Origin: Telmatocola sphagniphila
GTDB lineage: Bacteria; Planctomycetota; Planctomycetia; Gemmatales; Gemmataceae
Assembly (NCBI RefSeq): GCF_018398935.1
Contig: NZ_CP074694.1
Location: 4,530,001-4,562,000, forward strand
Direction of reading: 5' to 3'
DNA: 32,000 nucleotides
In this document: positions 2,935-28,929 of the stretch, piece after piece
Layout: each line of letters starts with the position of its first letter
How positions within the stretch are numbered: the first letter of the stretch is position 1
Made by a program: the position numbers and the translations under genes
Notes under the pieces: model-generated
Told to the model about the DNA's origin: nothing
Databases searched by the model: none
What the model saw: only the letters and a program-made list of their open reading frames with translations

Positions 2935-4059
2935 TTACTTGCCCTTCGGCAACGGCAGCACTTCCGGCTCATTCGCCGCCGGGGGTTGGGCCGGTTGTGC
3001 TTGCGGCGGTTCCAGGTTCGGTTTCGGCTTATCCGATTTCGTTTTCAGAGTCTTAAGCATCTGAGCCGCCAGCAGATCGTTCGGCTGCATCTTCACGACT
3101 TTTTCCAGCATCTGCGAAGCCTGCTCCGGATAGTTCAACACCAGGTAGTGGTACGCCAACAGGAACGCGGCTGCTGGTTCCGTGGGATGATCGATCCGGT
3201 ATTTTTCGAGATCGCGTAGCTGTTGCGTGTACGTTTCGGGATCGGCGTAGAGGCTTCGCAGCGTATCCCAGTCCCAACCAGGACCCGCCGCCAGGACGGT
3301 GTAAACGGTGGCCGCCGATTGCTTGTAATCTTTGAGAGCAAACAGGCTCAGAGCACGGAATTCGTGCAGAATCGGATCGCGCGGAATCTCTTTGATCGCG
3401 GCCTCGTTAATATCCAGAGCTTTCTTGTACTCGCCGGCTCGGAACAATTCTCGAGCTACCTGGAAGATGCGAATGCCGCTTTGCCCGGATACCGAATTCG
3501 CCACGGGTGCCTCTGCGGGCGGCAGAATGGGCCGGGAGTAATCGTAGGCAGGCTCGGCCGGTTGGATGTTATACGTAGTGGGATTTATGTAGTACGGGTT
3601 GGAGTAATAGTAAGAGGCCACACCCCCCCAGGGTAAAAGCGGCGCGAAACCATAACCGTAGTAGCCCCAACCCCAACCGTAATTCCACCAGGGCCAGTAG
3701 CCGTGCGACCAGTAGCTGTGATAGTTGTAATCGTACCAGCCGCGGGTGCCGGGCCGGGCATAGACGTTGTTGACGAAAGCCGGCCGATCGGCTCGGAAGC
3801 CGCCGACATAACTGGGGTTATAAGCCGAGCCGTAGTAGCGATTGGTTCCGAAGCTGGATGCGTAGGAAGAATGATACGCGCCGCCGTAATTGGAGTAGCT
3901 GGAGAAAGCGGGCCGGGAAATACTCGAAAAACTGCCGCCGCGAACTCCGCCGCCACTAAACCCGCCACCGGCGTGGCCACCGCCGCCGCGTTGAGCCTGA
4001 GCAGAAGAAGCGGATAAGGACAGAGCCGTTAGAGCGGCTAACAGGATGAGTTTTTTCAT
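2935..4059 (-). CDS. Secreted protein: signal peptide, Gly/Ser/Tyr/Trp-rich low-complexity region, TPR-like helical domain and a Pro-rich tail
   Basis: ATG at 4059 follows GGGGAGG with a 5-nt spacer. The signal peptide is MKKLILLAALTALSLSASSAQA. About 170 aa of GGGHAGGGFSGGG...WYDYNYHSYWSHGYWPWWNYGWGWGYYGYG follow, then helical repeats (ARELFRAGEYKKALDINEAAIK..., AAFLLAYHYLVLNYPEQASQMLEKVVKMQPND). Confidence 0.8.
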   Translation of the reverse strand: MKKLILLAALTALSLSASSAQAQRGGGGHAGGGFSGGGVRGGSFSSISRPAFSSYSNYGGAYHSSYASSFGTNRYYGSAYNPSYVGGFRADRPAFVNNVYARPGTRGWYDYNYHSYWSHGYWPWWNYGWGWGYYGYGFAPLLPWGGVASYYYSNPYYINPTTYNIQPAEPAYDYSRPILPPAEAPVANSVSGQSGIRIFQVARELFRAGEYKKALDINEAAIKEIPRDPILHEFRALSLFALKDYKQSAATVYTVLAAGPGWDWDTLRSLYADPETYTQQLRDLEKYRIDHPTEPAAAFLLAYHYLVLNYPEQASQMLEKVVKMQPNDLLAAQMLKTLKTKSDKPKPNLEPPQAQPAQPPAANEPEVLPLPKGK

Positions 4060-4480: not shown

Positions 4481-4539
4481 AACCAAATAAAAGAGGCGTG
4501 GTCTTCCGTACGAACGGAGGACCACGCCTTGGTTTTTTT
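4481..4539. terminator. Strong intrinsic terminator closing the filament operon, usable in both directions
   Basis: A 10-bp perfect stem (aggcgtggtc 4494-4503 with gaccacgcct 4520-4529) extends to about 15 bp via ttccg/cggag. T7 at 4533-4539 lies on the plus strand. On the minus strand the hairpin is followed by cttttatttggtt. It sits 12 nt beyond the stop of the 1850-aa gene. Confidence 0.85.
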
Positions 4540-4550
4540 AGAGCTATCGA

Positions 4551-7500
4551 CTACCGGATCTGCGTCGCATAGCGGATGACGTCCGTATACGGCGAGGCCT
4601 GGTAGTTGAAGTACTTGGTCTGCGGCCCCGGGTTGGCGTAGAAGGAGGGCTCGACAGCGCCAATTACCGGGAAGACTGCGATGCTCTCGCCCGGGTAGTG
4701 TTTATTCTTAGTACGAATCGTCAACCGGTAAGGAGCGGGTTGAGGAGTGGAACTGGCATTATTTGTTGCGCCAAGACCCGACATGAATCCTTGCACAACA
4801 TTAGTAGCTCCATTATAGCCGATCGTAATAAACTCTTCGTTGGGCGTTCCCGCTCCAATCAAGATGGAGGTTCCTTGTGTAGTGCTGGTTTGCGACTGGA
4901 TTTTCCAGGGTCGGCCATCGTACTCGCCCGAGAGCGATTTGATGACATAATGATTACCACTGAAAGCATCAACTAATGGCATCAAATCGGTATTCCCGGA
5001 GATGGTTGAGGGATAGACGAAGCCCGGAATGCTACAGGTGTACTGGAAGTAGGACGTACCATTCACACTGGTTGGCGTATAGGGATCCTGGTTTGGGGAT
5101 GGGTCGGGTTGAAAATCGAACAGCACCGGCGCCGAGGCCTGTGGCTGAGAGCCGGCTACGGCTGAGTAGGTAGCTAAGTTCGAACGGTCGACGACCGAGA
5201 AGAATTTGTGTCGAACGACTGTTCCATCTTTTGAGCCGAGCTCTTTACCCAATCGGGGACGATTCGAAGGTGTATAAGGCCCATCGTTTTCGACCTCGAA
5301 GTAGCCGACTGTACACCAGACCGCGAAGGTATTACTGCGGGTGGTAAGGTTATTCATGGCCTTAATCAGCATTTCATGGTTCATATACGGATGGAATTGA
5401 TCGGTGATAAACAACGGTTGGTTACCGACCGGGTTTGGTGCATTCGTATTGACCTGAAGAGGGTTGCCCCACAGGAATGTATTTTGAATACCGCTATTAT
5501 TGCGATAATAGAAGTTTGTGGCATTCGTATGGGCAGTATAAATCGGAAGCCCTGGCGGCATGAAAGCCCGGTCATTTCGAGAGAAATTACCCGGCTGGAT
5601 ATTGGTGGAAGACTCACCGGGCCAACGATATTTCTGTATAGCAGTCCAGGCATTCGTAACATCGCTATTCACACCGTTCGCATCGATATAAGTGAACGTG
5701 TTAGCATCACTGCCGGACACAACTGCTTTTAGGATCGTCGGGTCGTAAATTGTGTTGATATTCACTTTGCCTGGCGTGCGTCCGCCATAGGGAATACCGC
5801 GAACGCGAGTCTTTGTCTCCAGCAACGCAAGCGCCCGGAACAGGCGAACTTGATCGGCCACGAAAAAGTTCGTGTCGTTTGGATCCGGTTGGACGGTACC
5901 CGTGGGATCATTGAAAGCCGGTTCCATATCGGTCCAAGGTGCCAAGTGCATCATTCTCTGCGATCGCATAGCGGCGGCAGTACCGGCCGCAGTCGATTTA
6001 CTATTTACTCGACTCGGTTGATACGTGTTGTTACTCCAGTGGAATTGATTTGTAACGCGATGATTCGAGTAAGCGCACACCGTCAACAATTCCGCTGGGG
6101 AGATCAACGGCCGATCCAGGTGAGTATACCAATCGTAATTTGCGGACAGATTCTGGTTCCCATTCTTCAGGGTTAAAGAAGGAGACAGATACCTTTGCGG
6201 GGGAGGATAGTTCACCTGTCCAAAGGTCGAGAGAATATTTGTTATTGCCGGTGGCTGGGTTATGGTGGGACTTACTCCCGCCGGTTTAGCCGCTGGCTGC
6301 GGAGTTTGCTGAACGACTGAAGCTATGGCAGTCGGGGCAGCTACCGTTGTCGCTGCCGAAATCGTTGGCGTCCTCGAGTTTGTAGCATCCTTCGCAGGAG
6401 CATCGGCATCGGCAACCAGATTCAATAACTGGCTACTCGGTTGATAGCCATCGAGTGGCTGGCGTCGACCTATCGAAAACTGTTGGGCAATGGCTGTATT
6501 CGGGATTCTCGTGAAATTTCCCTTGCCGGCACCAACAACTCGATTATCGAAAATGGAATTACCGGCCTGTACGAAATAATCGACGGTTACCCAGGAATTA
6601 AGAATCGGATTGACGCCGTTCGGTGCGGGATCCTTAGTCGGATTTGTCGGATCGAAATTATATTGCGGCGCCATCGCCATCCGTTGTAAGACGAATATAT
6701 AGCGGTTGTTCGCTCCGTTGGTGGTAAGTGCTTGTGTATCCGCGGTAGTAGCGGTCTGATCCATATTAGGTGGATAAGGAGTAGTTCCCCCCAAAACTGA
6801 ACTTTTCACCTGAACATTCGCTTTTCCAGCACCCATAGTGGGATCGTTAGACATATTGGGAATTAATGTATTGGCCTGTACACCCGCCGCCGTAGCGTAC
6901 TTGCCCGTGGTAGTATCCGTTTGAGCATCGGGTGGACCGATAACAATATAGTTCTGCTGATCGCTCGTTTGGTCCAGGGGTTCGGCATTGGCAACTACCG
7001 GATTTGCCTGGCTCAAGGCCTTGAAAATTTGCTTGAACGGAATGATTTTGACGGTTGATGCAAAGCCATTATTCAAAGCTCCGGTTTGGAGATTGAAAAA
7101 GGTTGCATCGAAAACCCTGTGGTCGTAATTTTCGAGAAGACTGACGTAGCCATCCAGCGCCAAATCGGAAGTCGCCTGAATCTTTAAAATTCGATAATAG
7201 GTAAAATCTGCTTTGAAGATCGATTGAAGATTTGGCTGGCCATTTTGCGAAACGGGTGCCGTAACCGGACACTTCAGTTCAATCCAGTGCTGGTAAATAT
7301 ACGGCTGAGGTAATGTGGCTTTCCACTGCGTCGTATCATTGGGAGCTTGCGGATTAGCTAGAAAGGGATCCGACGGATCATTTCTAATGTGTGAATAAAC
7401 TTCGTTAATGACCAGACGCGGGTTTTCCACCCCGAAAATAATTTCCGTTCCACTGACAGCGTCTGTGGCCAAACTGGGGGGTGCCCCAGGATTCGCATCG

Positions 7501-10103
7501 TAAGCAAAGGTCAGATAATTGGGATCAAACGGATTCAAATTTCGCCAGTTATAGACAGTCATCACATCATCCTGATCGATGTAATCGACGATGTTTACTG
7601 CCAACTGGGCTAAATAACGCAGAGAGTTCTGCACCTGGGCCGTATTATAATTGGGTATTGATTGATCTCTTAGTAGTACCTTGCCAGTACCATAGTTAGC
7701 GGTCGTAGGTGAAGGCGGATTCGTCCAGATACCAGTCGCCACAACCAGTCGCAGGAAAATGTCGCGGGCAAAGACTTGTCGCTCCTGCATGATCTGCGGA
7801 ATCAAAGTCTGAGCAATGCCATTCGTGCCCGATGGGAATGGCGTCAATTTTCGATTCAAATCCAGCGCACTGATAATATTCGAGTTGCCCGCACCCCAAA
7901 GCTTCGCCTGTACCGCCGACGCTTTGTTCAGAGCACTATAATCCCCGCTTACCGGGTTATAAAGAGTGGGGAAGGCAAACGGTGATAGTGCCCCATCTGG
8001 CGTTGTGATGTTCTGGTTAGCGATCTTGAATTGAGTGATCAAACCGCGAGCCAGCGGGTCCACATTATTTCCATAAGTCGTAAACATGTGGTCGGTGCGG
8101 CCACTAGCCCACTCGTAGCCGGTGATACCCGGAGTGATCAAATCATTGCTGGTCGGGGTGATTCGGAAACGAGAGGCTGCGGCGGTCGGCAAATTGTAGA
8201 GGGAGTTTGGAGCCAGATTGGCGAGATCCGAACGCAGGATGGCATCATTTTCCCCTTTGAGCTTGTAATTCAACCAGCGCACGTCAGAAAAATTGTGCCC
8301 ATGATTCAATGACCAATTTTGATCGGTCTGGAAGTTCTGCGGTGGCACGCGGAGAGTCAGATAGGGGTTGTGCAAACTCGGATGATAAATCAATTCTGTC
8401 GGGTTCACAAAGGTAGGTTGCACGGCGTTATCGGTAATGTTCCACGCTTGGAACTGCGTGGCAGGGAAAGTCGGCGCAGTCATCTTCGGGAGACCCACAA
8501 CATTAGCGGGGAGTGCGATTTTCTGCGCGGAAGGCACAGGTATTAGTGAGTTTCCACTTTTTTGCAAATCGAGCGCATCATAATCTGCATTGGAATAGAA
8601 GATTGCTTTCGGGAAATCGGAAGAGTAATTCCCAGCGAATGTACTCAAATCGAATCCATACGGTTTGCCGATAGCAACATTGCTCAGTTGACCTTGATAA
8701 ATCGGTGAGCCGCCTGGATCATTACCCACACTGTTAAACTGAGGGGTCTGTGCCATGCTCTGCACCATTCGCCCGGCCGTGTAGGCGGTCGGGGGTCGAG
8801 TGATGACATTAAAAGCATCGGCTCGGACGAGTGCGGAATTCGGATCTCCCAATGCTGTGTTGGGATCGATATCCCCCATCGCGATAGCCAGATTTTGCTC
8901 CCAAGGGCCCCACCCCTGATTCGAGCGCTGAAGGAAGTCAGGATTACCGTTTTTCGCACTGGCCTGAATCATACTGCCAGCGATATTCGAGTTGATACGG
9001 CCATCGAGATCGGTAATGAACATCGCGACCAACGGCTTGTAGTTCTTCCCTCTCCAACGGCGAACCGGCAGATCGATATCCATCCAGAGGCTGTCGTTAC
9101 CGGGCCCCCCTTCCAGGTTCTGGACATCGCCCGTATACGATCCATCCGCGTTCATGGGAACCGGAGGGAAATTTTTATGGTAATAGTTCGTGGGGCGCAG
9201 AATGCGATATTGACCGCGAGGACCAGCTATTGGGTCGCCGCTTGTTCCCCAGAGTGGGTTGGAGGGGTGCAGAACTGGAAGAGTGTTGTTAGTCGGAGCA
9301 AAGCCGGTATAAGTGATGCCGTTTGCCTGTGTTTCAAAGTGCCAGGGGCGGAAGAAAGAAGGCATCACGACCTGAGGCGTTCCACTCGCTGTAGAAATCG
9401 CGCCTAAATACAAGTGGTTGGTATCGACTGCAGTATAAGGGGCATTTTTTGGCACGTAGATCGCATTGGCCGCAGAGCGGAGTGAATACTGGGCTTGATT
9501 ACCATTTTGTCCATTGGTGATCCATTCCGGATCACGCTGTGGGAAATAACCGTTTGGATTTGTGCCAAGATAATCCGCCGGATATGGAGAATCTGAGTAG
9601 TTGATGTAGTTGTAAGCCCGATCGGAAGCCGTAGCACCTTGCTGGGAAGCATTGGCGTCCGTTATTGAACCAAAAGTCACACCTTCTGGATATCCCAGAC
9701 CGGCGAAGGGTTGGCCATTGATTGCATTGTAGTTGTACCCATACATATCCCGGGCGAGGCTCCAGCCGCGCAAAGCGTTGTAGCGGCCGACATCGTCTTC
9801 CACGTCGTAAATCAGATCGCCAAGCGTCTTATTGAAAATCTCATTCGGGATCGGCGGCGCATCATCGCTCGAACCCCGGTTGGTGATATTCAGACCCGGA
9901 GCCACTCCGGTATGTCCGCCAAACTGCGTTTCGCGGGCCTGCCGGGCCGAATTAGCGGCCGATTCCGCATAGAGCACGAAGGTAATGCCGACCACCGCGA
10001 ACAGCGCCAGCATGGTCACTACGACCAGCAGAATAATTCCGCGACGGCGGGTCGATAGTTTTTTCGTTTGCAGCAACATGGTGAGGGTCTCCCTCTGAAA
10101 CAT
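4551..10103 (-). CDS. Giant (1850 aa) GspK/PilX-like minor pseudopilin, putative filament-tip protein
   Basis: It is the last gene of the G-H-I-J-K series. The N-terminus RRRGIILLVVVTMLALFAVVGITFVLYAES is a GspK-style anchor (RG + hydrophobic helix, with no Phe+1 or Glu+5). GKVNINTIYDPTILKAV (KVNINT = 5751..5768) matches the GspK (I/V)N(I/V)NT motif. LTTRSNTFAVWCTVGYFEV...RHKFFSVVDRS resembles the GspK C-terminal strands. The rest is Asn/Thr/Pro/Tyr/Gln-rich with few charged residues. An alternative start is ATG 10079, preceded by GGGAGA with an 8-nt spacer. Confidence 0.75.
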   Translation of the reverse strand: MFQRETLTMLLQTKKLSTRRRGIILLVVVTMLALFAVVGITFVLYAESAANSARQARETQFGGHTGVAPGLNITNRGSSDDAPPIPNEIFNKTLGDLIYDVEDDVGRYNALRGWSLARDMYGYNYNAINGQPFAGLGYPEGVTFGSITDANASQQGATASDRAYNYINYSDSPYPADYLGTNPNGYFPQRDPEWITNGQNGNQAQYSLRSAANAIYVPKNAPYTAVDTNHLYLGAISTASGTPQVVMPSFFRPWHFETQANGITYTGFAPTNNTLPVLHPSNPLWGTSGDPIAGPRGQYRILRPTNYYHKNFPPVPMNADGSYTGDVQNLEGGPGNDSLWMDIDLPVRRWRGKNYKPLVAMFITDLDGRINSNIAGSMIQASAKNGNPDFLQRSNQGWGPWEQNLAIAMGDIDPNTALGDPNSALVRADAFNVITRPPTAYTAGRMVQSMAQTPQFNSVGNDPGGSPIYQGQLSNVAIGKPYGFDLSTFAGNYSSDFPKAIFYSNADYDALDLQKSGNSLIPVPSAQKIALPANVVGLPKMTAPTFPATQFQAWNITDNAVQPTFVNPTELIYHPSLHNPYLTLRVPPQNFQTDQNWSLNHGHNFSDVRWLNYKLKGENDAILRSDLANLAPNSLYNLPTAAASRFRITPTSNDLITPGITGYEWASGRTDHMFTTYGNNVDPLARGLITQFKIANQNITTPDGALSPFAFPTLYNPVSGDYSALNKASAVQAKLWGAGNSNIISALDLNRKLTPFPSGTNGIAQTLIPQIMQERQVFARDIFLRLVVATGIWTNPPSPTTANYGTGKVLLRDQSIPNYNTAQVQNSLRYLAQLAVNIVDYIDQDDVMTVYNWRNLNPFDPNYLTFAYDANPGAPPSLATDAVSGTEIIFGVENPRLVINEVYSHIRNDPSDPFLANPQAPNDTTQWKATLPQPYIYQHWIELKCPVTAPVSQNGQPNLQSIFKADFTYYRILKIQATSDLALDGYVSLLENYDHRVFDATFFNLQTGALNNGFASTVKIIPFKQIFKALSQANPVVANAEPLDQTSDQQNYIVIGPPDAQTDTTTGKYATAAGVQANTLIPNMSNDPTMGAGKANVQVKSSVLGGTTPYPPNMDQTATTADTQALTTNGANNRYIFVLQRMAMAPQYNFDPTNPTKDPAPNGVNPILNSWVTVDYFVQAGNSIFDNRVVGAGKGNFTRIPNTAIAQQFSIGRRQPLDGYQPSSQLLNLVADADAPAKDATNSRTPTISAATTVAAPTAIASVVQQTPQPAAKPAGVSPTITQPPAITNILSTFGQVNYPPPQRYLSPSLTLKNGNQNLSANYDWYTHLDRPLISPAELLTVCAYSNHRVTNQFHWSNNTYQPSRVNSKSTAAGTAAAMRSQRMMHLAPWTDMEPAFNDPTGTVQPDPNDTNFFVADQVRLFRALALLETKTRVRGIPYGGRTPGKVNINTIYDPTILKAVVSGSDANTFTYIDANGVNSDVTNAWTAIQKYRWPGESSTNIQPGNFSRNDRAFMPPGLPIYTAHTNATNFYYRNNSGIQNTFLWGNPLQVNTNAPNPVGNQPLFITDQFHPYMNHEMLIKAMNNLTTRSNTFAVWCTVGYFEVENDGPYTPSNRPRLGKELGSKDGTVVRHKFFSVVDRSNLATYSAVAGSQPQASAPVLFDFQPDPSPNQDPYTPTSVNGTSYFQYTCSIPGFVYPSTISGNTDLMPLVDAFSGNHYVIKSLSGEYDGRPWKIQSQTSTTQGTSILIGAGTPNEEFITIGYNGATNVVQGFMSGLGATNNASSTPQPAPYRLTIRTKNKHYPGESIAVFPVIGAVEPSFYANPGPQTKYFNYQASPYTDVIRYATQIR

Positions 10104-14522: not shown

Positions 14523-15722
14523 TTAATCTCCCCGTTGGCCGGTCCGACGGAGCCGGTAGCTGATGATGTCGTCGTTGGCGATGCTGCGCGATAGCGATTT
14601 TGGCGTTGGTTTTGTTTCTTTACACTCATTAATATCATCGGTGTGGTACAGCTTATCCGGACCGGCCGAGAAAATAATCGGACCCATGTTCAGGTTCGGG
14701 AATCTATATTGCATAAAGTAACTATTCTGATTAGCGTTAGAATTAGGATTGCCTGATGATGTATAAAAATCTGGCTGTAACGCTTTAAAGATTGTCCCCG
14801 AAATATTACCTGTCCAGTTCTCACGCAGTTTACCTTCCGGATCGAGCGGATCGAGAGTTGTTGCTCCGTTTCGCACGAAAGGGGGTGAACTAAGTTCGCC
14901 AATGTAGCTATTCGCTGTGAAAGGCAATATCGGATTATTTCGGTTAGGAGGTTGCTGTGGTATCGCTTGATTCCCACCATGTACACCATAAGTACCATAC
15001 CGACGGAAGCCGATTGGCATCCCCCAAGAATCGATAAAAACAGTATAAGATTTGCCTCCGCGAGATATCACTCCCGTCGAGTTGGCGCCGAAAGTATCAA
15101 CTGAAGATTCCATACCTCCGCGAGAAGTTGAAAGAATCTGGTATAGCAGTACAGCAGATTCCAGATTAAATACACTATTTGTGGTAATCAATGTATCATC
15201 TTGCAAATGGGTTGCACCGATGAGTGCATCCCGATAAGTCTGTTTAGAAAATAATAAAACTTGTGGTAAAGTACCGGTAGCTGGGAGATTAACTGCAGCA
15301 ACCGTCGCTGGATTAGGAACTGCCGAATAAGTGGTTCCTACACCGCCTACATAAACGTCACTGAACGCGTGAGGAAATTCTTGGAATAGCCGCAGGCGAA
15401 CCCAGAGAGCTCGGCCTCGAGCGGAATCAAAACCCGACCACTGATTGATCGCGTCTTCCCAGTTATAACCTGGGGTGTAGGGGTTGTTCGGATCGACCAT
15501 CTGTTCGCGTTTGGCCGTTTCGATTACCGACTTCCACTGCTGATCGAAAGCGGTGCCAATTTTTTCGAGAAGCGTTTCCGTGGCGATGCGCTGCTGCGAG
15601 CTCTGCACCCGGAATACGGCCCCAACCACCAATCCCATCAGAAGCGTGATGATGCCGATCACCGTGAGCAGTTCGATCAGGGTGAAGGCCGCTCGGCTTC
15701 TGTGCGGATGATTCAGACGCAT
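14523..15722 (-). CDS. GspG-like (pseudo)pilin paralogue 2, expanded (400 aa)
   Basis: The start is reassigned to ATG 15722, preceded by GAGGA with a 7-nt spacer. The signal is MRLNHPHRSRAA|FTLIELLTVIGIITLLMGLVV with Ala at -1. The C-terminus IIFSAGPDKLYHTDD...NDDIISY resembles the GspG SxGxDG...DIxxW tail. The listed 461-aa form would overlap the upstream gene by 100 nt. Confidence 0.7.
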   Translation of the reverse strand: MRLNHPHRSRAAFTLIELLTVIGIITLLMGLVVGAVFRVQSSQQRIATETLLEKIGTAFDQQWKSVIETAKREQMVDPNNPYTPGYNWEDAINQWSGFDSARGRALWVRLRLFQEFPHAFSDVYVGGVGTTYSAVPNPATVAAVNLPATGTLPQVLLFSKQTYRDALIGATHLQDDTLITTNSVFNLESAVLLYQILSTSRGGMESSVDTFGANSTGVISRGGKSYTVFIDSWGMPIGFRRYGTYGVHGGNQAIPQQPPNRNNPILPFTANSYIGELSSPPFVRNGATTLDPLDPEGKLRENWTGNISGTIFKALQPDFYTSSGNPNSNANQNSYFMQYRFPNLNMGPIIFSAGPDKLYHTDDINECKETKPTPKSLSRSIANDDIISYRLRRTGQRGD

Positions 15723-15808
15723 GGGAAAGTCCTCGCGAAAATCGCCGGTCCGCACAAGCGAACCGGCAGCCAATCCATTTGGCGGAATTCCGCCAGAGTC
15801 GCCCGGGA

Positions 15809-16933
15809 TTAAGGAATACCTAACAGTTTGGAGGAGAAGTTCGACACATCGTCGTAACCGTAGCCGGTCGATTGCTGCTGGTAATAGGGGTTGTTGCTCG
15901 GCTGCCAAAGTAAACCACCTGGGCCGAATCCGCCCTTCCCGTTGGTAGGATCTTTAATGGCGTACTGACCATCGGTACCGGCACTGATGATCTGGAAGCC
16001 GTTGGGCTTCACAAATTTGTTAGTTGAATCGACGTAAGGATTAATCGTATTACTGAATGATCCCGAAGGAGTTGAACAGTAAACTCTCAGGCCACCACCC
16101 AAGGAATTTGTGGTCAAGATAGGCAAATAGCCATTGGTTGAAAAATATTTGTTATTACCTGTAGTCAGATCTGCATAATCATTTCCATTACGACTGCCAA
16201 AGTAAGCATAAGGAACGTCATACGCATCCAAGAAACCAGGAAAGTAAGATACCTTTCCTACGTTGGGATCGAATTCATGCGAAATTAGCGCAGGATACGG
16301 AGTACCGGTAGTCCGGTTACTCAACTTGCCGGCCGGAAAATCGAAGTATGGTTTCTTATAGGTAATCGTCGGCTGACCTCCTGCTGCTATAGCAGGATTC
16401 CCAAAAGGATTGGTCGGATCATCCGAAAAACCAAGCCCTGCAGCAGCGAAATTATAATTTCCGCCACCATGCTGAGCATAACCACCCAATAGGAAAACCA
16501 ACACTTGCGAACCACTAATAACTTGATAATTCGCTCCAGATTGCACCGGTAACCCATTTGATCCGTTAGGACTAGGATTCCAGCGAGGGAACATTTTCTT
16601 TAGGAACGATTGACTATCAAGAACCATCTGAGGCATCCACTGAACAGCTGGATTAGGCAAATTCAAAGCAGCTTGATAGGCGGCGCCATAATTCGCCGCA
16701 ATCACCAAATGCGTCGGCGGCGTTAGATTCCCGTAATCGCTCCGGAACTGCCCGATGGCGTTATCCAGATTGGTGATATCGCTCCGGATACGAGCTTCAT
16801 AAGCTTTGGTGGTTGCCGCGGAAATCCCGACGAGCAGCAGGCCGACCAGGATGAAGATAATGCTCATGACCACCAGCATTTCCACAAGGGTAAATGCCTT
16901 ACGAGGGGTCATGGCGTGCGGTCGTGGTTTCAT
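15809..16933 (-). CDS. GspG-like (pseudo)pilin paralogue 1, expanded (374 aa); candidate major subunit
   Basis: ATG 16933 is preceded by AGGAGA with an 8-nt spacer. The listed start at 16939 is a TTG. The signal is MKPRPHAMTPRKA|FTLVEMLVVMSIIFILVGLLLVG with Ala at -1. YEARIRSDITNLDNAIGQFRSDYG is like the GspG alpha1-C region. QIISAGTDGQYAI...GYDDVSNF is like the GspG C-terminal motif. Confidence 0.75.
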   Translation of the reverse strand: MKPRPHAMTPRKAFTLVEMLVVMSIIFILVGLLLVGISAATTKAYEARIRSDITNLDNAIGQFRSDYGNLTPPTHLVIAANYGAAYQAALNLPNPAVQWMPQMVLDSQSFLKKMFPRWNPSPNGSNGLPVQSGANYQVISGSQVLVFLLGGYAQHGGGNYNFAAAGLGFSDDPTNPFGNPAIAAGGQPTITYKKPYFDFPAGKLSNRTTGTPYPALISHEFDPNVGKVSYFPGFLDAYDVPYAYFGSRNGNDYADLTTGNNKYFSTNGYLPILTTNSLGGGLRVYCSTPSGSFSNTINPYVDSTNKFVKPNGFQIISAGTDGQYAIKDPTNGKGGFGPGGLLWQPSNNPYYQQQSTGYGYDDVSNFSSKLLGIP

Positions 16934-17016: not shown

Positions 17017-18255
17017 CTATTTGCTCAAACCTTCCAGCAGCTTAATCAAAGGTAAGAAGAGCGAGATCACAATCGCCCCGATGATAAAACCTAGCACGAC
17101 AATCATCAACGGTTCGATCAAGCTGATCAAACTTTTCACGGCCGTGTCGACTTCTTCATCGTAGAAGTCGGCAATCTTATAGAGCATGGAGTCGAGGTCG
17201 CCGGTCTCCTCGCCGACCTCCACCATGTTGCAAACCATATCGTCGACGAGCCGGCTTTCCTTCAGGGGTTCGGCAATCGTATCCCCTTCCCGGATCGACT
17301 CGTAAACGCGAGTAAACATTCGCTCGAACACGGCGTTATTGGCCGTGTCGCGGACAATACTCAACGCCTCCAATATCGGCACACCGGAGGCCACGAGGGT
17401 GCCCAGGGTGCGCATTGTCCGCGCTACAATCGTTTTCTCCACGAGGTTCCCGACGACGGGCACCCAGAGCAGCATCCTATCTAAGGCATATGTACCGGCC
17501 CTCGATAGTCGTATGAGTTTTATGAGAAGATAGAGCCCCATGGGGAACATCGGAATCGTCCACCAGTAATCGGCGAACCAGTTCGAGGTATCGATGAGGA
17601 TCTGCGTGGGCGCGGGCAACTTCATGTTGAATTCTTCGAAGATCTTTTTGAACTTCGGAATGATCGAGATCATGATGAACGTCAAGATACCGACGGCGAC
17701 CATGATAACCACGGCCGGGTAAACCATGGCGCCGATGATCTTGCGCTTGAGGCTCTGAGCCTTTTCCTTGAAGTCGGCCAGACGCTGCAAGATGATTTCG
17801 AGGGCACCGCCGGCCTCTCCGGCACGCACCATATTCACATAGAGACGGTCGAAGCAGCGGGGGTGCTTGGCCATGGCTTCGGACAGGGTGCTGCCCGATT
17901 CCACATCGTCCACCACGTCGATGAGGTTATTTTTCAGGGTGCTGGGCTTCATCTGCCGTTCGAGAATTCGCAGGCTGCGGAGCACGGGCAGACCGGCGTC
18001 CTGAAGCGTACTGAACTGGCGGGTGAAGGTACAAAGCATCTTGTTGGAGACGCCGCCGATGGTGAAGGTCTTGCGGGATTTACCCGTCTTCTTTTTCTTC
18101 TTCGTCTTCGTGTTCACGCCCATGGCGGTGAGCTTCGTGACGAAGTAGCCCATCTGCTTGATTTTCTGTTGCGCCTCTTCTTCGTTCAGCGCATCGATTT
18201 CGTCCTTGACTTCGGCACCGGCCGTGTCCAGAGCTTCGAATTTATATGTTGGCAT
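17017..18255 (-). CDS. pilC: Type IV filament platform protein (PilC/GspF family)
   Basis: The product is 412 aa. The N-terminus MPTYKFEALDTAGAEVKDEIDALNEEEAQQKIKQMGYFV is a typical GspF/PilC start. Two T2SSF-type repeats are present (...LSEAMAKHPRCFDRLYVNMVRAGEAGGAL... and ...IAEPLKESRLVDDMVCNMVEVGEETGDL...), along with three hydrophobic segments. RBS GGTGGAG. Confidence 0.9.
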   Translation of the reverse strand: MPTYKFEALDTAGAEVKDEIDALNEEEAQQKIKQMGYFVTKLTAMGVNTKTKKKKKTGKSRKTFTIGGVSNKMLCTFTRQFSTLQDAGLPVLRSLRILERQMKPSTLKNNLIDVVDDVESGSTLSEAMAKHPRCFDRLYVNMVRAGEAGGALEIILQRLADFKEKAQSLKRKIIGAMVYPAVVIMVAVGILTFIMISIIPKFKKIFEEFNMKLPAPTQILIDTSNWFADYWWTIPMFPMGLYLLIKLIRLSRAGTYALDRMLLWVPVVGNLVEKTIVARTMRTLGTLVASGVPILEALSIVRDTANNAVFERMFTRVYESIREGDTIAEPLKESRLVDDMVCNMVEVGEETGDLDSMLYKIADFYDEEVDTAVKSLISLIEPLMIVVLGFIIGAIVISLFLPLIKLLEGLSK

Positions 18256-18412: not shown

Positions 18413-20374
18413 TCAACCTTCGTCTTCGAGCACCGTTTCGCGGACGATTTCTTCCACGTTACTGATGCCGTTGAACAGCATATCGATACCCCGTTCGCGA
18501 AGACCGCGAGCCCCCCGGGCGCGCACGGCGTTTCGTAGAGCATCGGTCGATGCCCCGCGCGAAACCATATCGCGGAGGTCATCGTTCATAATCAACATTT
18601 CATAAATCCCGGTTCGGCCCTTGAACCCGAGATTGTTGCACTTGTCGCAACCTTCCCCAAAGTAGAATTGGCGGCCCTTGAGATCTTCAGCCTTCATATT
18701 CAATTCCATCAGCTGTTCCCGGCTCGGATCGTAGCCGGTTTTACAGAACTGACAGATTTTTCGCACCAGACGCTGAGCCAGAATCGCCTCGACGGTGGCC
18801 GTGATCAAAAACGGCTCCACGCCCATGTCGCGCAGACGGGTGATCGTACTCGGTGAATCATTAGTATGCAAGGTACTGAACACCATGTGTCCAGTGAGGC
18901 TGGCCTGAATGGCAATTTGGGCAGTTTCCAGGTCTCGAATTTCGCCGACGAGGATTCGGTCGGGGTCCTGCCGTAAAATTGCCCGCAGCGCGGAGGCGAA
19001 CGTCAGGTCGATTTCCGCATTAATCGGGCACTGCACGATGCCGTCGATTTCATACTCGACCGGATCTTCGGTCGTGATGATTTTATCGGTTATTTCGTTC
19101 AGCTCGTTTAACGCGGAATAGAGCGTCGTCGTCTTACCGGCCCCGGTCGGCCCGGTCACCAGACAGATGCCGTTGGGCTTGCGGATGACGCTGCGGAAAT
19201 CGGCCAGGATATCTTCGGGCAGACCGATACGATCCAGTTCCAGACCGACCCGGGTACGGTCCAGAACCCGGATGACCACGCTCTCGCCAAACATGGTCGG
19301 CAGAACCGAAACGCGCATGTCGATGGGGTTGCCGCCGATGTTCAATTCGATGCGGCCGTCCTGCGGCAGACGGCGTTCGGCGATATCCAGGTTGGACATA
19401 ACCTTGATACGCGAGGAGATCGCCATTGCCAGGTGGCGCGGCGGCGGCACCATCTCATAGAGCACACCGTCGCAACGATAACGCATCTTGTATTCGTCTT
19501 CGAACGGTTCGAAATGGACGTCCGAGGCGTGGTCGCGAATGGCCATCAGCAGCACCATGTTGATGAGCTTGCGGACGGGGGCCGTATTGGCGATTTCGTC
19601 GATTTCGTCGAGGTCGATCGAGGTTTCGCGCTTGATCTTGTTGAAGCGATCGTCCACTTCGAGACTGTGAATCAGATCGGTGATCGATTCTTCCTTGGTG
19701 CCGCTGTAGGCCTTCTGGATGGCCGCTTCGATCTTCTTGACCGGCGCCAGACAGGCAATCACTGTTGGAATACCGAGGAAGTTCCGCACATCGTCGATGG
19801 CCTGCAGATTGTTCGGATCGGCCAGGACCACCGTCAGCGTGTCGTTATCGAACGAGATGGGCAGCATCTTATAGAGATTGGCCATGGTTTCCTGAACCAT
19901 GCCGAGGGCTTTGGCTTCGGGCTTGGTCTCGTCTAGATTGACGATCCGCATGCCCGATTGCTCGGCCAACGCCTGCAGCAACTGATCTTCGTTGATCAGA
20001 CCGCGTTCGACGGCGATCAGTTCCAGAGGGGAATCGGTGCTGCGGGCCTGTTCGAGCAGATCTTCCATCTGCAGTTCGTCGATGAACCCCAGGTCGACGA
20101 GAATCTGACCCAGCTTGCGGGTGCCCGAGGAGGGGGCGGTCTTTTTCGGGGCCGCTTTACCTTCGGCTTTTTTGACGACGGGCTTGGCCGCCGCCGGTTT
20201 CGCTTCGCCCGCTTTGGCCACAGGTGCCGCACCCGGCTTGGCCACGGGTTTGGCTCCGGGAGCGGCCGGCTTAGCCCCAGGGGCAGCTGTCGGCTTGACC
20301 ATCGGTTTGGGCGCCGTGGGCTTCGTGGGATCGGGCTTCTTTCCGTCGTTCGATTTATTGGAAGGGGTGGTCAT
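18413..20374 (-). CDS. pilB: PilB/GspE-family assembly ATPase (paralogue 2) with a Pro/Ala/Lys-rich N-terminal extension
   Basis: Motifs seen are Walker A GPTGAGKTTT, Walker B ILVGEIRD, His box GHMVFSTLHTND and a tetracysteine CQFCK...CDKCNNLGFKGRTGIYE. A T2SSE_N/MshEN-like domain follows about 85 aa of KPTAPKPMVKPTAAPGAKPAAPGAKPVAKPGAAP. Confidence 0.9.
   Translation of the reverse strand: MTTPSNKSNDGKKPDPTKPTAPKPMVKPTAAPGAKPAAPGAKPVAKPGAAPVAKAGEAKPAAAKPVVKKAEGKAAPKKTAPSSGTRKLGQILVDLGFIDELQMEDLLEQARSTDSPLELIAVERGLINEDQLLQALAEQSGMRIVNLDETKPEAKALGMVQETMANLYKMLPISFDNDTLTVVLADPNNLQAIDDVRNFLGIPTVIACLAPVKKIEAAIQKAYSGTKEESITDLIHSLEVDDRFNKIKRETSIDLDEIDEIANTAPVRKLINMVLLMAIRDHASDVHFEPFEDEYKMRYRCDGVLYEMVPPPRHLAMAISSRIKVMSNLDIAERRLPQDGRIELNIGGNPIDMRVSVLPTMFGESVVIRVLDRTRVGLELDRIGLPEDILADFRSVIRKPNGICLVTGPTGAGKTTTLYSALNELNEITDKIITTEDPVEYEIDGIVQCPINAEIDLTFASALRAILRQDPDRILVGEIRDLETAQIAIQASLTGHMVFSTLHTNDSPSTITRLRDMGVEPFLITATVEAILAQRLVRKICQFCKTGYDPSREQLMELNMKAEDLKGRQFYFGEGCDKCNNLGFKGRTGIYEMLIMNDDLRDMVSRGASTDALRNAVRARGARGLRERGIDMLFNGISNVEEIVRETVLEDEG
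20123..20344 (-). repeat. Low-complexity Pro/Ala/Lys-coding tract (N-terminus of PilB paralogue 2)
   Basis: Degenerate (A/P)(A/G)AKP(V/A) units are visible in translation. The DNA shows reiterated ggctt/ggcc/cggg motifs. Confidence 0.7.
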
Positions 20375-20496: not shown

Positions 20497-21699
20497 CTAC
20501 GAGCGGCCGTAGTTCAGTTTCTTCTTGGGAGGCGGTCCGCCCTTGCGGGGCTTGTCATCATCGTCGTCCTCATCGTCCATATCGTCGTCGTCATCCTCAT
20601 CGTCTTCGTACTCGTCGTCTTCCAGAAGGCCCTTCTCGGCGGCGGCGATTTTGGCGGCCAGGTCGGCCGGTTTCTTCGAACGCAGCAGCACTTCTTCCTT
20701 ATCGCAGAGGCCAGTCTTCCAGAGATTGAAGAGACTGTCGTCGAGGAGGAACATCCCGTACTTACGACCGGTCTGGATACTCGAGTCGATTCGATACACT
20801 TTGTTTTCGCGAATCAGGTTCTGGATAGCATCGGTCACCACCATCATTTCGTAGGCGGCGATCACCCCTTCGGGCTTCTTCGGCAGAAGCGCCTGGGACA
20901 ACACCCCCATCAGAGCGGTCGACAGCTGCGTGCGAACCTGATCCTGCTGGTCTTTCGGGAACACGTCGATAATTCGGTTGATCGTCGAAGCGGCCCCGGA
21001 GGTGTGCAGCGTACCGAACACGACGTGGCCGGTTTCGGCGGCTTCGATGGCCGCGTGAATCGTCGCCAAGTCTCGCATTTCACCGACGAGGATGACGTCC
21101 GGATCCATACGCAAGGCCCGGCGAATCCCTTCCTTGAAGTCGGGGACGTCCACCCCGATTTCCCGCTGGTTCACGGTGCACTTTTTGTGCTTGTGGTAGT
21201 ATTCGATCGGGTCTTCGAGGGTGATGATATGTCGGTCGTAGTTGTCGTTGATGAAGTTGGTCATCGACGCCAGCGAAGTGGTCTTTCCCGAACCGGTCGG
21301 CCCGGTGACCAGCAACAGACCGCGCGGCCGGACGATCAGCGATCGAATGGCGTCGGGCATCATCAGCTGTTCGAAGGTGAGGAACTGGCTGGGAATGCGG
21401 CGGAGCACCATGCCGATGGTGCCGCGCTGTTTGAAAATCGCACAGCGGAAGCGGTAGCCGTCGGTGAATTCGATGGCGAAGTCCGATCCCCCTTTTTCCT
21501 GCAGTTCCTGCTGGCAGCGATCGGGCGTGATGGACTTCATCAGCGCGGTCGTATCGTCGTTATCGAGAACTTTGGTTTCCAGCTTGCGCATGCGCCCATT
21601 GTGCCGGACGACGGGAGGCTGTCCGACGGATATGTGCAAGTCGCTGGCTTTGAGCTGGATGACGGTCGCCAGCAATTTATCGATCATTACCGTGGCCAC
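20497..21699 (-). CDS. pilT: PilT retraction ATPase with an atypical acidic C-terminal tail
   Basis: Motifs seen are IDKLLATVIQLKASDLHISVGQPP, Walker A GPTGSGKTTS, ILVGEMRD, GHVVFGTLHT and the PilT-specific AIQNLIRENKVYRIDSSIQTG. The start is either GTG 21699 (AGGAGA, 4-nt spacer) or ATG 21687. About 55 residues extend beyond the canonical PilT end. Confidence 0.92.
   Translation of the reverse strand: MATVMIDKLLATVIQLKASDLHISVGQPPVVRHNGRMRKLETKVLDNDDTTALMKSITPDRCQQELQEKGGSDFAIEFTDGYRFRCAIFKQRGTIGMVLRRIPSQFLTFEQLMMPDAIRSLIVRPRGLLLVTGPTGSGKTTSLASMTNFINDNYDRHIITLEDPIEYYHKHKKCTVNQREIGVDVPDFKEGIRRALRMDPDVILVGEMRDLATIHAAIEAAETGHVVFGTLHTSGAASTINRIIDVFPKDQQDQVRTQLSTALMGVLSQALLPKKPEGVIAAYEMMVVTDAIQNLIRENKVYRIDSSIQTGRKYGMFLLDDSLFNLWKTGLCDKEEVLLRSKKPADLAAKIAAAEKGLLEDDEYEDDEDDDDDMDDEDDDDDKPRKGGPPPKKKLNYGRS
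20554..20622 (-). repeat. GAY/GAR codon run encoding EDDEYEDDEDDDDDMDDEDDDDD
   Basis: A run of gtc/atc/ctc triplets on the plus strand spans 23 codons, 21 of them Asp or Glu. It is followed by a basic KPRKGGPPPKKK tail. Confidence 0.9.
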
Positions 21700-21747: not shown

Positions 21748-23457
21748 CTACTCGTGATCGGAATGGCAGATACTCAAAATTTCTTCGACGGTGGTGACGC
21801 CTCGGAGACACTTCAGCACACCGTCTTCCAGAAGGTTGCGCATCCCGGTTTCGCGAGCGACGCGACGGATTTGCTGGGCAGGGGCCTGTGCGAAGGTCAT
21901 TTCTCGAATCTTCGCGTTCAGGGCCATCATTTCGTAGATACCGGTTCGGCCGCGGAAGCCGCACTGGTTGCAGTTGCTGCAGCCGCGGCCCCGCATGAAG
22001 TTCGCTCCCTTGAGCTGTTCGGGCTTGATCCCGGCCGAGAGAATTTCGGCTTCGGGAGGCACGTAAGCGACCTTGCACTTACTGCAGTTCACGCGGGCCA
22101 GACGCTGGGCCATAATCGCGATCACCGAAGAGGCGATCAAGAACGGCGGCACGCCGATGTCGGCCAGCCGGGTAATGGCCGAGGGGGCATCGTTGGTGTG
22201 CAGCGTGGAGAACACCAAGTGACCCGTCAGTGAAGCCTGCACGGCGATTTCCGCCGTTTCCTTATCGCGAATTTCCCCCACCAGAATGATGTTGGGGGCC
22301 TGTCGCAACATGGCGCGGATAATTCGCTGGAAATCGAGGCCGATGTTGTGCCGGACTTCCACCTGATTAATCCCCGGCAGGTAGTATTCCACCGGGTCTT
22401 CCGCCGTGATGATTTTGCGGTCGGGCCGGTTGAGTTCATTCAACGCGGCATAGAGCGTCGTCGTTTTGCCCGAACCGGTCGGTCCGGTCACCAGAAAGAT
22501 GCCGTTGGGGCGTTTGATGATCTTCTGGAAGCGCAGATAGTCGTCTTCGCCGAAGCCCATATCCCGGATGTTCACCTGGATGTTGCCGCGGTCGAGAATA
22601 CGCATCACGCAGGACTGGCCGTGCACGGTCGGCAAGAAGCTAACGCGAAGGTCGAAGTGCTTGCCCTGAATGGTCGTTTTGATCCGACCGTCCTGGGGCC
22701 GGCGCTTCTCGGCAATGTCGATATTGCCCATAATCTTCAAACGGCTGACCATAGCCGCCTGCAAACGACGGGGGATGGCATCGCGCTCGACGAGAATGCC
22801 GTCGATGCGATAGCGGATTCGGACGCGATCCGCAAACGGCTCGATGTGGATGTCGCTGGCCCGCTGGGCCACCGCTTCCGCGAGCATCATATTGCAGAGC
22901 CGGACCACCGGAGCGTCGGAATCGCCGGCATCGGAGTGAGCCGCCCGGGCCGCTTCGGTCTGGGTGAATTCGATCTGGGTGTCGGTGAATTCGGAAAGCA
23001 TGGAGTCCATCGACTCCGTTTCCGTTTGGCCGTAGTGCCGGTTGATCGATTCGCGAATTTGCTCGTGATCCGCCAGCACCGGGGTGACGTCTTTATTCAG
23101 AATGAAGGTCAGCTTCTGAATGGTATCGTAGTTGGTGGGGTCGGAGGTGATGAGCTTGAGAACGTTTCCTTCGAGTTGCAGTGGCAGAACGACGTTTTCT
23201 CGGGCCACGGATTCCGGTACCAATTCGATGACTGACTTGGCGATTTCCACGCCTTCGAGATCCACGTATTGCAGGCCATGGAATTCGGCCATGGCCGCCA
23301 TGACTTCTTTTTGAGTCAGGTAGTTCGATTTGACCAGTGCTTCCTGGATCTTGGTACCGGTCGAAGAGCTCAGGCGCAGTGCTTCTTCTAACTGATCGGG
23401 GCCAATGAGGCGATTGCGGATGAGAATATCGGTAAAGTCGCCGCGTGCCTTGGCCAT
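21748..23457 (-). CDS. pilB: PilB/GspE-family assembly ATPase (paralogue 1), first gene of the operon
   Basis: The start is reassigned to ATG 23457, preceded by AAGGAGA with a 9-nt spacer, giving 569 aa. Motifs seen are an N-terminal T2SSE_N-like domain, Walker A GPTGSGKTTT, ILVGEIRD, GHLVFSTLHTND and CSKCK...CSNCNQCGFRGRTGIYE. Confidence 0.9.
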   Translation of the reverse strand: MAKARGDFTDILIRNRLIGPDQLEEALRLSSSTGTKIQEALVKSNYLTQKEVMAAMAEFHGLQYVDLEGVEIAKSVIELVPESVARENVVLPLQLEGNVLKLITSDPTNYDTIQKLTFILNKDVTPVLADHEQIRESINRHYGQTETESMDSMLSEFTDTQIEFTQTEAARAAHSDAGDSDAPVVRLCNMMLAEAVAQRASDIHIEPFADRVRIRYRIDGILVERDAIPRRLQAAMVSRLKIMGNIDIAEKRRPQDGRIKTTIQGKHFDLRVSFLPTVHGQSCVMRILDRGNIQVNIRDMGFGEDDYLRFQKIIKRPNGIFLVTGPTGSGKTTTLYAALNELNRPDRKIITAEDPVEYYLPGINQVEVRHNIGLDFQRIIRAMLRQAPNIILVGEIRDKETAEIAVQASLTGHLVFSTLHTNDAPSAITRLADIGVPPFLIASSVIAIMAQRLARVNCSKCKVAYVPPEAEILSAGIKPEQLKGANFMRGRGCSNCNQCGFRGRTGIYEMMALNAKIREMTFAQAPAQQIRRVARETGMRNLLEDGVLKCLRGVTTVEEILSICHSDHE

Positions 23458-23755
23458 AGACAAAAATCTCCTTCGGAGGGCAGATCCCCCGCATTCGGAT
23501 GGCCTTCGGGAAATGCCAATGCCATCCCCATAGCAATCCAATAGATAGGAACCACCCCAGTAGCCCGATTCCCCAGCGCTGCAGTGCTTTATGAATCTTT
23601 TGTCATTTTGAGCAAGTACTGGAGCATATGCAAGTGAAAAGTCGTCGAGTCCAGTTTGGAGATAACCGCTCCTGTTGGACTAATCCGCGCGGCTCCCGAG
23701 GGGAGGCCGGGCGGCCGAAACTGATATGCGGGTTGCGCCGTTTTTGAGCGCGGGA

Positions 23756-24525: not shown

Positions 24526-24609
24526 GCCGAGGTGGCGGAATTGGCAGACGCGCTAGCCTCAGGAGCTAGTCCTCGCAAGGGGGTGCAGGTTCAACTCCTG
24601 TCCTCGGCA
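24526..24609 (+). tRNA. tRNA-Leu (anticodon CAG), type II with a long variable arm
   Basis: The 7-bp acceptor stem pairs GCCGAGG with CCTCGGC, and the discriminator is A. The D-stem is 3 bp. The anticodon stem pairs CTAGC with GCTAG around the loop CTCAGGA. The variable arm is TCCTCGCAAGGGGGT and the T-arm is GCAGG-TTCAACT-CCTGT. No CCA is encoded. Confidence 0.9.
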
Positions 24610-24739
24610 TCTACTGAAATCATAAGGGCTTACGTCAATAATGACTAAGCCCGATTTCAACTTCTCTCAATTTGGCTTCTGCAATTTTGCTGCACTTATG
24701 GCACTCGCACTGCGGTAACATAGACCGTAGGAGATCGTC

Positions 24740-25987: not shown

Positions 25988-26377
25988 GCTAGCTATTACA
26001 TACCGTTCAGGAACGGTATGGTTCAAGGTTGACCGTGAAAGCGGTCAACACCGCTCTACACCGCACGTCAAAACTCACCCGGACTGAAAATGACGGAGTT
26101 TAAACAACTCGTTCGATTATTTCCCGATTGGCCGGGAAATTCCGGGCAATTTTGGAAATCATCTTTGACATGTGTGGTGCCGTCATTTAGGCTATGGATC
26201 ACTAGAATACGCGGCAAATCCGCCACTGGATTGCCCACGTGATCGGCTTAAGGGTTTGAGATAAAAGATGTTAGGCGACACGGGACACAAGATACCATAA
26301 TGCGCGGCGCATCGAGTAAGGGCTTTCATGCGTATTACTACTGAGTAGCCCATCCCCCAATTGGTCCTTCCTCACCG

Positions 26378-28552: not shown

Positions 28553-28599
28553 GCACCTGACTGGGCATTGAAGCGTTGAGGATGTAGTAGGTCATCATG

Positions 28600-28730: not shown

Positions 28731-28929
28731 TGTCTCTTATAAACGAATTAACAGTAACACGGATCGCCCTTTTTCTGGATGGAAGCGACGGGTTGCCCAC
28801 CCCACAATCAAGGAAGACGGGCCCATCCGCTCTAATAATTGATTTTTATTTTATACGAAAAACGTTAAACGGCATCGATCATATTCCGTACTACAAATCT
28901 CAGTGGTTGGAGGCGGAAAATCTAAATCA

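Follow-up and report, generated by a model that had tools for sequence, protein, structure and literature searches.

Gene content of the locus

A 32,000-nt stretch of the Telmatocola sphagniphila genome (contig NZ_CP074694.1, positions 4,530,001 to 4,562,000; hereafter the window) carries a pilus-type operon that ends in an exceptionally long gene, here called the giant gene. Profile comparison indicates that its product, the giant, is most likely a very divergent homologue of the GspK/PilK class of minor pilins. The open reading frame (ORF) comprises 1850 codons counted from the first ATG. The public product (KIH39_18190, QVL30770.1) is a hypothetical protein of 1842 amino acids (aa), 100% identical and located on a 6.59-Mb contig; in UniProt it is named ‘Verru_Chthon cassette protein A’. 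A second ATG at 10079 is preceded 9 nt upstream by GAGGGAG and gives the 1842-aa product, with a leader as long as those of the homologues. On the basis of this spacing and leader length, 10079 is the likelier position and probably the true start. Residues are numbered below from the first ATG (the 1850-aa version).

Upstream of the giant gene, and on the same strand, lie genes for two PilB/GspE-type assembly ATPases, a PilT/PilU-family retraction ATPase, a PilC/GspF platform protein and five prepilin-type proteins (Table 1). The prepilin N-termini match best, in order, GspG, GspG, GspH, PilV (GspI class) and generic minor pilins. The resulting order G-H-I-J-K is that of the E. coli gsp operon, with the H, I and J identities taken from N-terminal matches only. 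The giant gene follows the 557-aa prepilin gene after a gap of 55 bp and its stop codon is followed by a hairpin, which together make it the final gene of the operon. It thus stands directly after gspH-, gspI- and gspJ-type genes, in the K/X slot, which bears out the gene position of a tip subunit assigned to it in the initial annotation.

Conservation of this arrangement was counted in a species-level genome scan, over the 49 loci for which 7.5 kb or more of upstream sequence was available. The order was kept in 39 of the 49, PilT included, and the 557-aa gene was the upstream neighbour in 38; the arrangement was also found in three of five individually inspected homologues. All five prepilins are 376–557 aa long, two to four times the usual pilin size, and curated pilin models match only their N-terminal 25–65 residues.

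Anatomy of the giant

The anchor RRRGIILLVVVTMLALFAVVG is the only hydrophobic segment of the giant. Gly21 is followed by Ile at +1 and Val at +5, so that Phe+1 and Glu+5 are both missing, as first annotated. The segment conforms to the GspK pattern R-G-[VI]-x-L-L without Glu+5, and an RRG-hydrophobic N-terminus of this type is conserved across all homologues. Composition is likewise as initially described (A 9.3, N 9.0, T 8.8, P 8.6, G 7.0, S 6.5, Q 5.5 and Y 4.8%, with Cys at just 0.2%). Self-BLASTP found no internal repeats, and the idea of an internally repetitive protein was rejected.

BLASTP coverage divides the giant into conserved blocks (aa 26-410, 750-940 and 1320-1650) separated by divergent stretches that are always present. 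The initial annotation had described a GspK-type motif at 5751-5768, a terminal block with about 210 aa behind it, and an insert of about 1400 aa between anchor and motifs. The motif is present; the range given for it is too short and lies within the true segment GKVNINTIYDPTILKAV, which spans aa 1445-1461 (window 5721-5771). The terminal block is also present (LTTRSNTFAVW at aa 1586-1596, FFSVVDRS at aa 1634-1641) and 209 aa follow it. The distance from anchor to motifs was right, and the anatomy drawn from it misleading, with further GspK-like segments at aa ~345-377 and 764-851. Because GspK-like pieces are distributed along the whole polypeptide, the picture of a single 1,400-aa insert is incorrect. 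The giant instead appears to be a GspK scaffold divided by three insertions, with a fourth ahead of the C-terminal strand.

Local structure was read from two AlphaFold models, model 1 (aa 1290-1850, from a 36-sequence alignment) and model 2 (aa 1-960, from a 54-sequence alignment), scored by the predicted local distance difference test (pLDDT). Insertion A reaches a pLDDT of 94 in model 2, with no Foldseek match and no similarity to GspK. In the VDYIDxDD motif of the first SAM-like subdomain, V839, D840, D843 and D845 are invariant in the family alignment, and VDYIDQDD of the giant corresponds to ADYIDVDD of E. coli GspK.

At the other end of the protein, P1825, G1826 and P1827 are conserved in at least 90% of the family alignment. 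NPGP lies 24–30 aa from the C-terminal end in 184 of 208 family members, and Val occurs at -9 in ~146 and at -8 in ~145 of these 184. The last strand (aa 1843-1849, residues 554-560 of model 1) has a pLDDT of 79, against 49–69 just before it. The VVPY strand at the extreme C-terminus is therefore conserved and length-constrained; its conservation and local pLDDT suggest that it may act as a donor strand.

Table 1. Features of the operon and of the giant, in order of transcription. Residues are those of the 1850-aa version and positions those of the window; P values are from hhalign against the GspK profile.
Feature	Residues (aa)	Window position	Strand	Remarks
PilB/GspE-type assembly ATPase, first copy		21748..23541	-	operon start
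PilT/PilU-family retraction ATPase		20497..21699	-	432 bits, cut-off 319
PilB/GspE-type assembly ATPase, second copy		18413..20374	-	
PilC/GspF platform protein		17017..18255	-	
Prepilin-type protein, 376 aa		15809..16939	-	GspG-like N-terminus; candidate major subunit
Prepilin-type protein, ~399 aa		14523..15722	-	GspG-like N-terminus; ORF extends to 15908
Prepilin-type protein, 391 aa		13344..14519	-	GspH-like N-terminus; TIGR01708 E 1e-8, N-terminus only
Prepilin-type protein, 418 aa		12044..13300	-	GspI/PilV-like N-terminus SLTEVLVA; TIGR02523 E 1.4e-4, N-terminus only
Prepilin-type protein, 557 aa		10159..11832	-	GspJ/PilW position; N_methyl above Pfam cut-off; NCBIfam matches N-terminal only
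Giant gene		4551..10103	-	ORF of 1850 codons; probable start 10079
Prepilin-like anchor RRRGIILLVVVTMLALFAVVG, RRRG/IILLVVV	19-39	9987..10049	-	no Phe+1, no Glu+5; GspK-type
Long N-terminal helix, putative pilin alpha-1 equivalent	24-60	9924..10034	-	model 2, pLDDT ~80 for aa 31-50
Insertion A	~61-340	9084..9923	-	most conserved family region; P 0.67
Beta-hairpin segment YKPLVAMFITDLDGRINSN	345-377	8973..9071	-	DLDGRxNxN, hhalign match to GspK beta1-beta2 ‘DxxxxFNLN’; short strands in model 2
Insertion B	~400-760	7824..8906	-	variable, poorly modelled; P 0.27
First SAM-like helical subdomain	764-851	7551..7814	-	VDYIDxDD similar to GspK DWIDxD (hhalign); helices 764-789 and 822-842 in model 2
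Insertion C	~860-1320	6144..7526	-	starts with conserved VFGxExPRLVxNEVY block, remainder variable; P 0.3, 0.33
Second SAM-like/helix-hairpin-helix subdomain	1326-1496	5616..6128	-	GKVNINT similar to GspK NxNT (hhalign, HMM)
Putative C-terminal pilin beta-sheet block LTTRSNTFAVW...FFSVVDRS	1579-1643	5175..5369	-	helix and strands in model 1, pLDDT 77-84
Insertion D	~1650-1820	4644..5156	-	variable, beta-rich; model 1 strands pLDDT 42-66; P 0.62
Conserved extreme C-terminus NPGPQ...VIRYATQIR-COOH		4554..4640	-	candidate terminal (donor) beta-strand
Hairpin with 17-bp stem, A- and T-run flanks		4493..4530	.	terminator; directly 3' of giant gene

Profile comparison with GspK

A GspK profile was built from 48 sequences, namely GspK of E. 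coli K-12 together with 47 diverse relatives; PF21687 is present in all and PF03934 in most of them. It was compared with the family alignment of the giant block by block using hhalign, with the reversed GspK profile as a control. Four collinear matches were obtained: aa 1-130 with GspK 3-88, covering the anchor and alpha-1 (P 1e-5, reversed 0.013); aa 330-420 with GspK 73-114, where ITDLDGRINSN aligns with DxxxCFNLN (P 8e-4, reversed 0.29); aa 760-860 with GspK 109-160, where NIVDYIDQDD aligns with E. coli SIADYIDVDD (P 1.8e-5, reversed 0.3); and aa 1300-1520 with GspK 121-257, where GKVNINT aligns with NxNT (P 1.4e-4, reversed 0.075). A further match, of aa 1560-1660 with GspK 258-319 (TTRSNTFAV with VxSxYF), is collinear and not significant (P 0.17, reversed 0.44). 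At the level of sequence profiles, the two SAM-like subdomains (D-W-I-D-x-D, then N-x-N-T) thus occur in the GspK order. The stretches aa 60-340, 400-760, 860-960, 940-1330 and 1640-1850 served as internal negative controls and gave P values of 0.27–0.67. With hhalign defaults, a single E. coli GspK or whole alignments matched the anchor or the NINT region only, and the GspK signal is clear only in the block-by-block comparison with its controls.

A gap-permissive full-length alignment (near-zero gap costs) of the family profile with GspK scored 349. Twenty column-shuffled GspK profiles scored 273 +/- 6 (z = 13), and 20 profiles in which blocks of 25 columns were permuted scored 288 +/- 15 (z = 4.1), from which it follows that both the motifs and their order are beyond chance. 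P-values from such alignments are inflated (4e-33 for the reversed profile), and the shuffle z-scores alone were therefore used.

A GspK hidden Markov model (HMM) was also run on 208 full-length family members at a per-sequence P < 0.01. It matched the N-terminus in 149 members at relative position 0.01, the DWIDxD region in 39 at 0.45 (interquartile range 0.43-0.47) and the NxNT region in 63 at 0.76 (0.75-0.77). Reversed family sequences gave zero matches. The collinear matches, the shuffle z-scores and these position-fixed HMM matches support the GspK relationship that had first been suggested from isolated motifs. The T2SSK similarity in the C-terminal quarter, on which the initial annotation had made its proposal depend, was absent with HMMER against Pfam, NCBIfam and PDB and weak with hhalign (the last two of the matches above).

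We conclude, with a probability of roughly 65%, that the giant is a minor pilin of the GspK/PilK class, the ‘cap’ of a type IV filament machine found in Gemmatales and composed of two PilB/GspE ATPases, PilT, a PilC/GspF protein and five oversized prepilins. The same profile match and gene order would also fit a short periplasmic pseudopilus of the type II secretion system (T2SS), in which the giant would be a piston head or substrate-contacting tip and not a surface adhesin. The closest profile match is, after all, T2SS GspK, the order G-H-I-J-K is that of gsp genes, and the ATPases and platform protein score nearly equally for GspE/GspF and PilB/PilC, all under the equivalog cut-offs. Against this, an above-cut-off PilT/PilU-family ATPase lies inside the operon and is kept in related loci, while to our knowledge T2SSs normally lack PilT; nor is there a GspC, GspL, GspM or GspD gene within the window. 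We consider a T2SS-type pseudopilus unlikely.

Curated models, structure searches and points against a cap pilin

Several results weigh against assignment of the giant to the cap pilins. It matches no T2SSK, T2SSK_1st, N_methyl or other Pfam or NCBIfam model; the C-termini of 36 homologues yielded a single T2SSK match, at E 0.11, and a family consensus generated with hmmemit matched nothing in Pfam or NCBIfam. No single hhalign probability exceeds 82%, and the final beta-sheet block compares with GspK at P 0.17. When the query and two family profiles were run against PDB sequences by phmmer and hmmsearch, no match was returned beyond a chance one to Cse1 at E 1.8. Confidence in the AlphaFold models is low to moderate (mean pLDDT 56 for model 1; mean pLDDT 63 and predicted template modelling score 0.65 for model 2), and Foldseek recovered neither GspK nor another fold from them: the comparison of model 1 with PDB was meaningless, and model 2 matched nothing in PDB or BFVD. 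No secretin or prepilin peptidase gene is present within the window. Finally, in 10 of the 49 loci (~20%; e.g., L025, L028 and L057) the giant gene is an orphan, and the 10 kb upstream of it contain no pilus genes. The metagenome-assembled genome MFD02248.bin.2.136 contains one operon copy and two orphans. Orphan copies, including these, suggest that the family may supply alternative tip subunits.

By curated thresholds, then, the giant falls outside the Pfam and NCBIfam families. It does not reach the gathering threshold of PF21687, PF03934 or the NCBIfam GspK model, and scans of seven homologues against Pfam and NCBIfam gave nothing above noise. PF07963 and TIGR02532, which match all five upstream pilins, do not match it. 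Nor was a lectin, propeller, vWA, Ig or PilY1 domain detected by Pfam or by Foldseek of the two AlphaFold models. A PilY1/Neisseria_PilC propeller was specifically absent (no Pfam match at E <= 1 and no propeller in Foldseek). The idea that the giant is a PilY1 homologue was rejected, as the Pfam scan found no PilY1 domain.

The empty structure searches, the lack of any pilin or T2SSK match, the terminal beta-sheet block that is not significantly GspK-like and the 20% of orphan copies could all be accommodated if the giant were an accessory factor with a PilY1-like role. It would then be membrane-anchored or secreted by way of an ordinary signal-anchor and would remain unpolymerised, its GspK-like motifs being remnants or convergent. 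The four collinear matches, at z = 13 and 4.1 over shuffles, speak against this, as do the position-specific HMM matches with their zero count on reversed sequences, the GspK-type RRG-hydrophobic N-terminus of all homologues and the lack of a PilY1 propeller. An unpolymerised accessory factor is accordingly an improbable explanation in our judgement.

Family size and distribution

An exhaustive profile search retrieved 3,997 cluster representatives (50% identity) at E <= 1e-3, 1,433 of them at E <= 1e-30. Of 162 confirmed loci, nearly all are assigned by their labels to Gemmatales, Gemmataceae or unclassified Planctomycetota; the outliers are one Singulisphaera and a few labelled Alcaligenaceae, which are possibly mis-binned. 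The giant family is therefore large, mostly from Gemmatales, and captured by no curated domain model.

The unusual length of the ORF and its lack of a recognised domain could in principle reflect the joining of several genes through errors of sequencing or assembly, the case that the initial annotation had named as fatal to its proposal. That case did not arise. Among 118 homologues aligned from independent genome and metagenome assemblies, 117 are 1260–1866 aa long and collinear over their full length, with all blocks in order; the sole exception is the truncated P0109 (1086 aa). Together with the identical 1842-aa protein on a 6.59-Mb contig and the ~4,000 representative relatives, this refutes an artefact or assembly chimera, to which we attach next to no probability.

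The UniProt name of the giant refers to TIGR02600, a 1296-position model with a threshold of at least 332.3 bits. The giant does not match it at E <= 10. The best family member reaches 14.4 bits, two of 36 C-termini reach E 0.013, and the family consensus gives no match. The name is thus not supported. One homologue, P0044, has a faint match at the TTRSNxFAV block (model positions 1199-1220), which hints at a distant relationship. Nothing on Verru_Chthon was found in the literature.

Proposed mechanism

In the pseudopilus, GspK forms the cap and has no Glu+5 (as cited in PMC13533445). That a pilin can carry a bulky module, either grafted on or inserted, is well established (PMC8179133). According to recent work, assembly of the tip complex is licensed by a C-terminal beta-strand of 6–10 residues, which comes from GspK itself (in cis) or from PilY1 (in trans); in certain PilK homologues, CpaL among them, the strand is preceded by a large insertion (PMC13533445).

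If the giant works in the same manner, prepilin peptidase would cut behind Gly21 and alpha-1 would remain in the inner membrane. A single small pilin sheet would form from three separated segments, aa 345-377, aa 1579-1643 and the terminal strand (aa ~1842-1850). The I/V-like 418-aa and J/W-like 557-aa neighbours may then dock onto it, giving an initiation complex from which polymerisation of the G-like subunits starts. As it has no Glu+5, the giant would be placed at the very top of the fibre, and the ~1,200 extra residues of insertions A-D would form a head of ~200 kDa at the tip. Such a head would likely bind a substrate, a surface or a macromolecule, and PilT could retract the fibre with the head attached. 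The giant may in this way combine the roles of cap and adhesin, following the logic of PilX plus PilY1 in one chain.

In planctomycetes, thick pili-like fibres of ~12 nm emerge from crateriform structures, and in Gemmata obscuriglobus these fibres were observed to bind dextran; the players in planctomycete macromolecule uptake are ‘still unknown’ according to a 2025 review (PMC5394234, PMC12673574). A speculative extension of the cap model, which we think has a small chance of being correct, is that the operon builds the thick dextran-binding crateriform fibres. The oversized pilins would explain the fibre diameter, the giant and its orphan paralogues would serve as interchangeable heads that capture cargo, and PilT would drive retraction toward the enlarged periplasm.

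Other features of the operon and its surroundings

The PilT-family ATPase (20497-21699) has an unusual acidic C-terminal tail of ~55 residues, EDDEYEDDEDDDDDMDDEDDDDD, followed by a basic stretch, KPRKGGPPPKKK. The second PilB/GspE-type ATPase (18413-20374) carries an Ala-, Pro- and Lys-rich low-complexity extension of ~85 residues before its MshEN domain. The ~399-aa prepilin is listed as a 461-aa ORF (14523-15908, reverse strand) with a TTG start, which overlaps the upstream gene; its prepilin motif lies at aa 70-94 of that ORF, and the real start is for this reason probably Met63 (15722).

The hairpin at 4493-4530 has a perfect stem and probably acts as a terminator in both directions, separating the giant gene from the stretch ahead of the downstream TPR gene (2935-4059, reverse strand). 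A DUF1501 gene lies at 1503-2786 on the forward strand, and another is found at 5366-6778 of locus L003, near the orphan paralogue P0114. As this family is abundant in planctomycetes, the proximity is probably coincidental.

On the other side of the operon, a tRNA-Leu(CAG) gene (24526-24609) is directly followed by a tyrosine integrase gene (24740-25987, forward strand). From ~27 kb the GC content is 0.44–0.49, against 0.50–0.60 elsewhere in the window. Genes in this low-GC stretch include one for a 724-aa protein that has a Vut_1 domain and another (29574-30620, reverse strand) that is GmrSD_N/DndB-like and, by PADLOC, NsnA-like. The region 24526-32000 has the appearance of an integrated island that carries a defence gene and adjoins the pilus operon.

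Significance and comparison with known systems

What appears to be new is a tip-cap pilin that several insertions have enlarged about six-fold and whose family is abundant. If this assignment is correct, such a pilin tolerates six-fold growth inside its own fold while keeping anchor, hairpin, two helical subdomains and terminal strand, and the family would provide a natural, independent test of the C-terminal-strand licensing model for tip assembly. With ~4,000 representatives at 50% identity, a distribution that the genome scan places almost exclusively within Gemmatales, and no match in Pfam, NCBIfam or PDB, the family marks a real gap in annotation. The operon and its last gene are candidates, open to genetic tests, for fibres that have been linked to polysaccharide capture by planctomycetes; were the crateriform-fibre proposal true, components of planctomycete macromolecule uptake would have been named.

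The closest known relative is GspK/XcpX (PF21687 and PF03934; structure 3CI0). The giant resembles it in the R-G-hydrophobic anchor without Glu+5 and in the order of its parts: alpha-1, a hairpin with D...N-x-N, a helical D-[WY]-I-D-x-D subdomain, a helix-hairpin-helix with N-x-N-T, and terminal strands. In both cases the gene stands last among the pilin genes, behind those of the H-, I- and J-like proteins, and the giant, like GspK, appears to carry a non-pilin domain inside the pilin sheet. However, the giant has 1,842 aa and GspK ~330 aa, the difference lying in three further insertions of ~280–460 aa and one of ~170 aa before the terminal strand. The giant also fails every curated GspK model, its operon includes PilT, and its partner pilins are two to four times the usual size.

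The giant also appears similar to the PilK proteins with large inserts, namely Caulobacter CpaL (~600 aa) and the Thermus and Vibrio PilK homologues (PMC13533445). These combine a pilin module, a large non-pilin region and a short conserved C-terminal strand, with no separate PilY1 gene, and initiator and adhesin have been proposed to reside in one polypeptide. In contrast to them, the giant is three times larger and has several insertions in place of one, and its strand donation is predicted from sequence conservation and modelling.

Modular type IV pilins (PilB and PilC of S. sanguinis, CofB of enterotoxigenic E. coli and ComZ of T. thermophilus) likewise carry a bulky module on a tip pilin scaffold, and in ComZ and GspK the module lies inside the beta-sheet, as proposed here for the giant (PMC8179133). 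The largest modular pilin in the 2021 survey has 860 aa (PMC8179133), an extreme well past which the giant would extend the size range. The giant's modules bear no recognisable domain signature. That survey defined its members by the IPR012902 N-methyl signature (PMC8179133), a signature that accompanies a module in modular pilins and is missing from the giant, as it is from GspK itself; the survey would therefore have missed the giant family.

Two further systems are of comparable size. Verru_Chthon cassette protein A (TIGR02600) is longer than 1,200 aa, is encoded with prepilin-type proteins and shares the faint C-terminal match seen in P0044, but in the neighbours of the giant any match to cassette proteins B, C and D is confined to the generic N-terminus of prepilins. 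The PilY1/PilC tip adhesins of type IVa pili belong to the same size class and are presumed, as proposed for the giant, to be the large tip-displayed part of a retractile pilus. PilY1, however, is not a pilin and is encoded by a separate gene following pilX, while in the giant the K/X-like scaffold itself would bear the extra mass.

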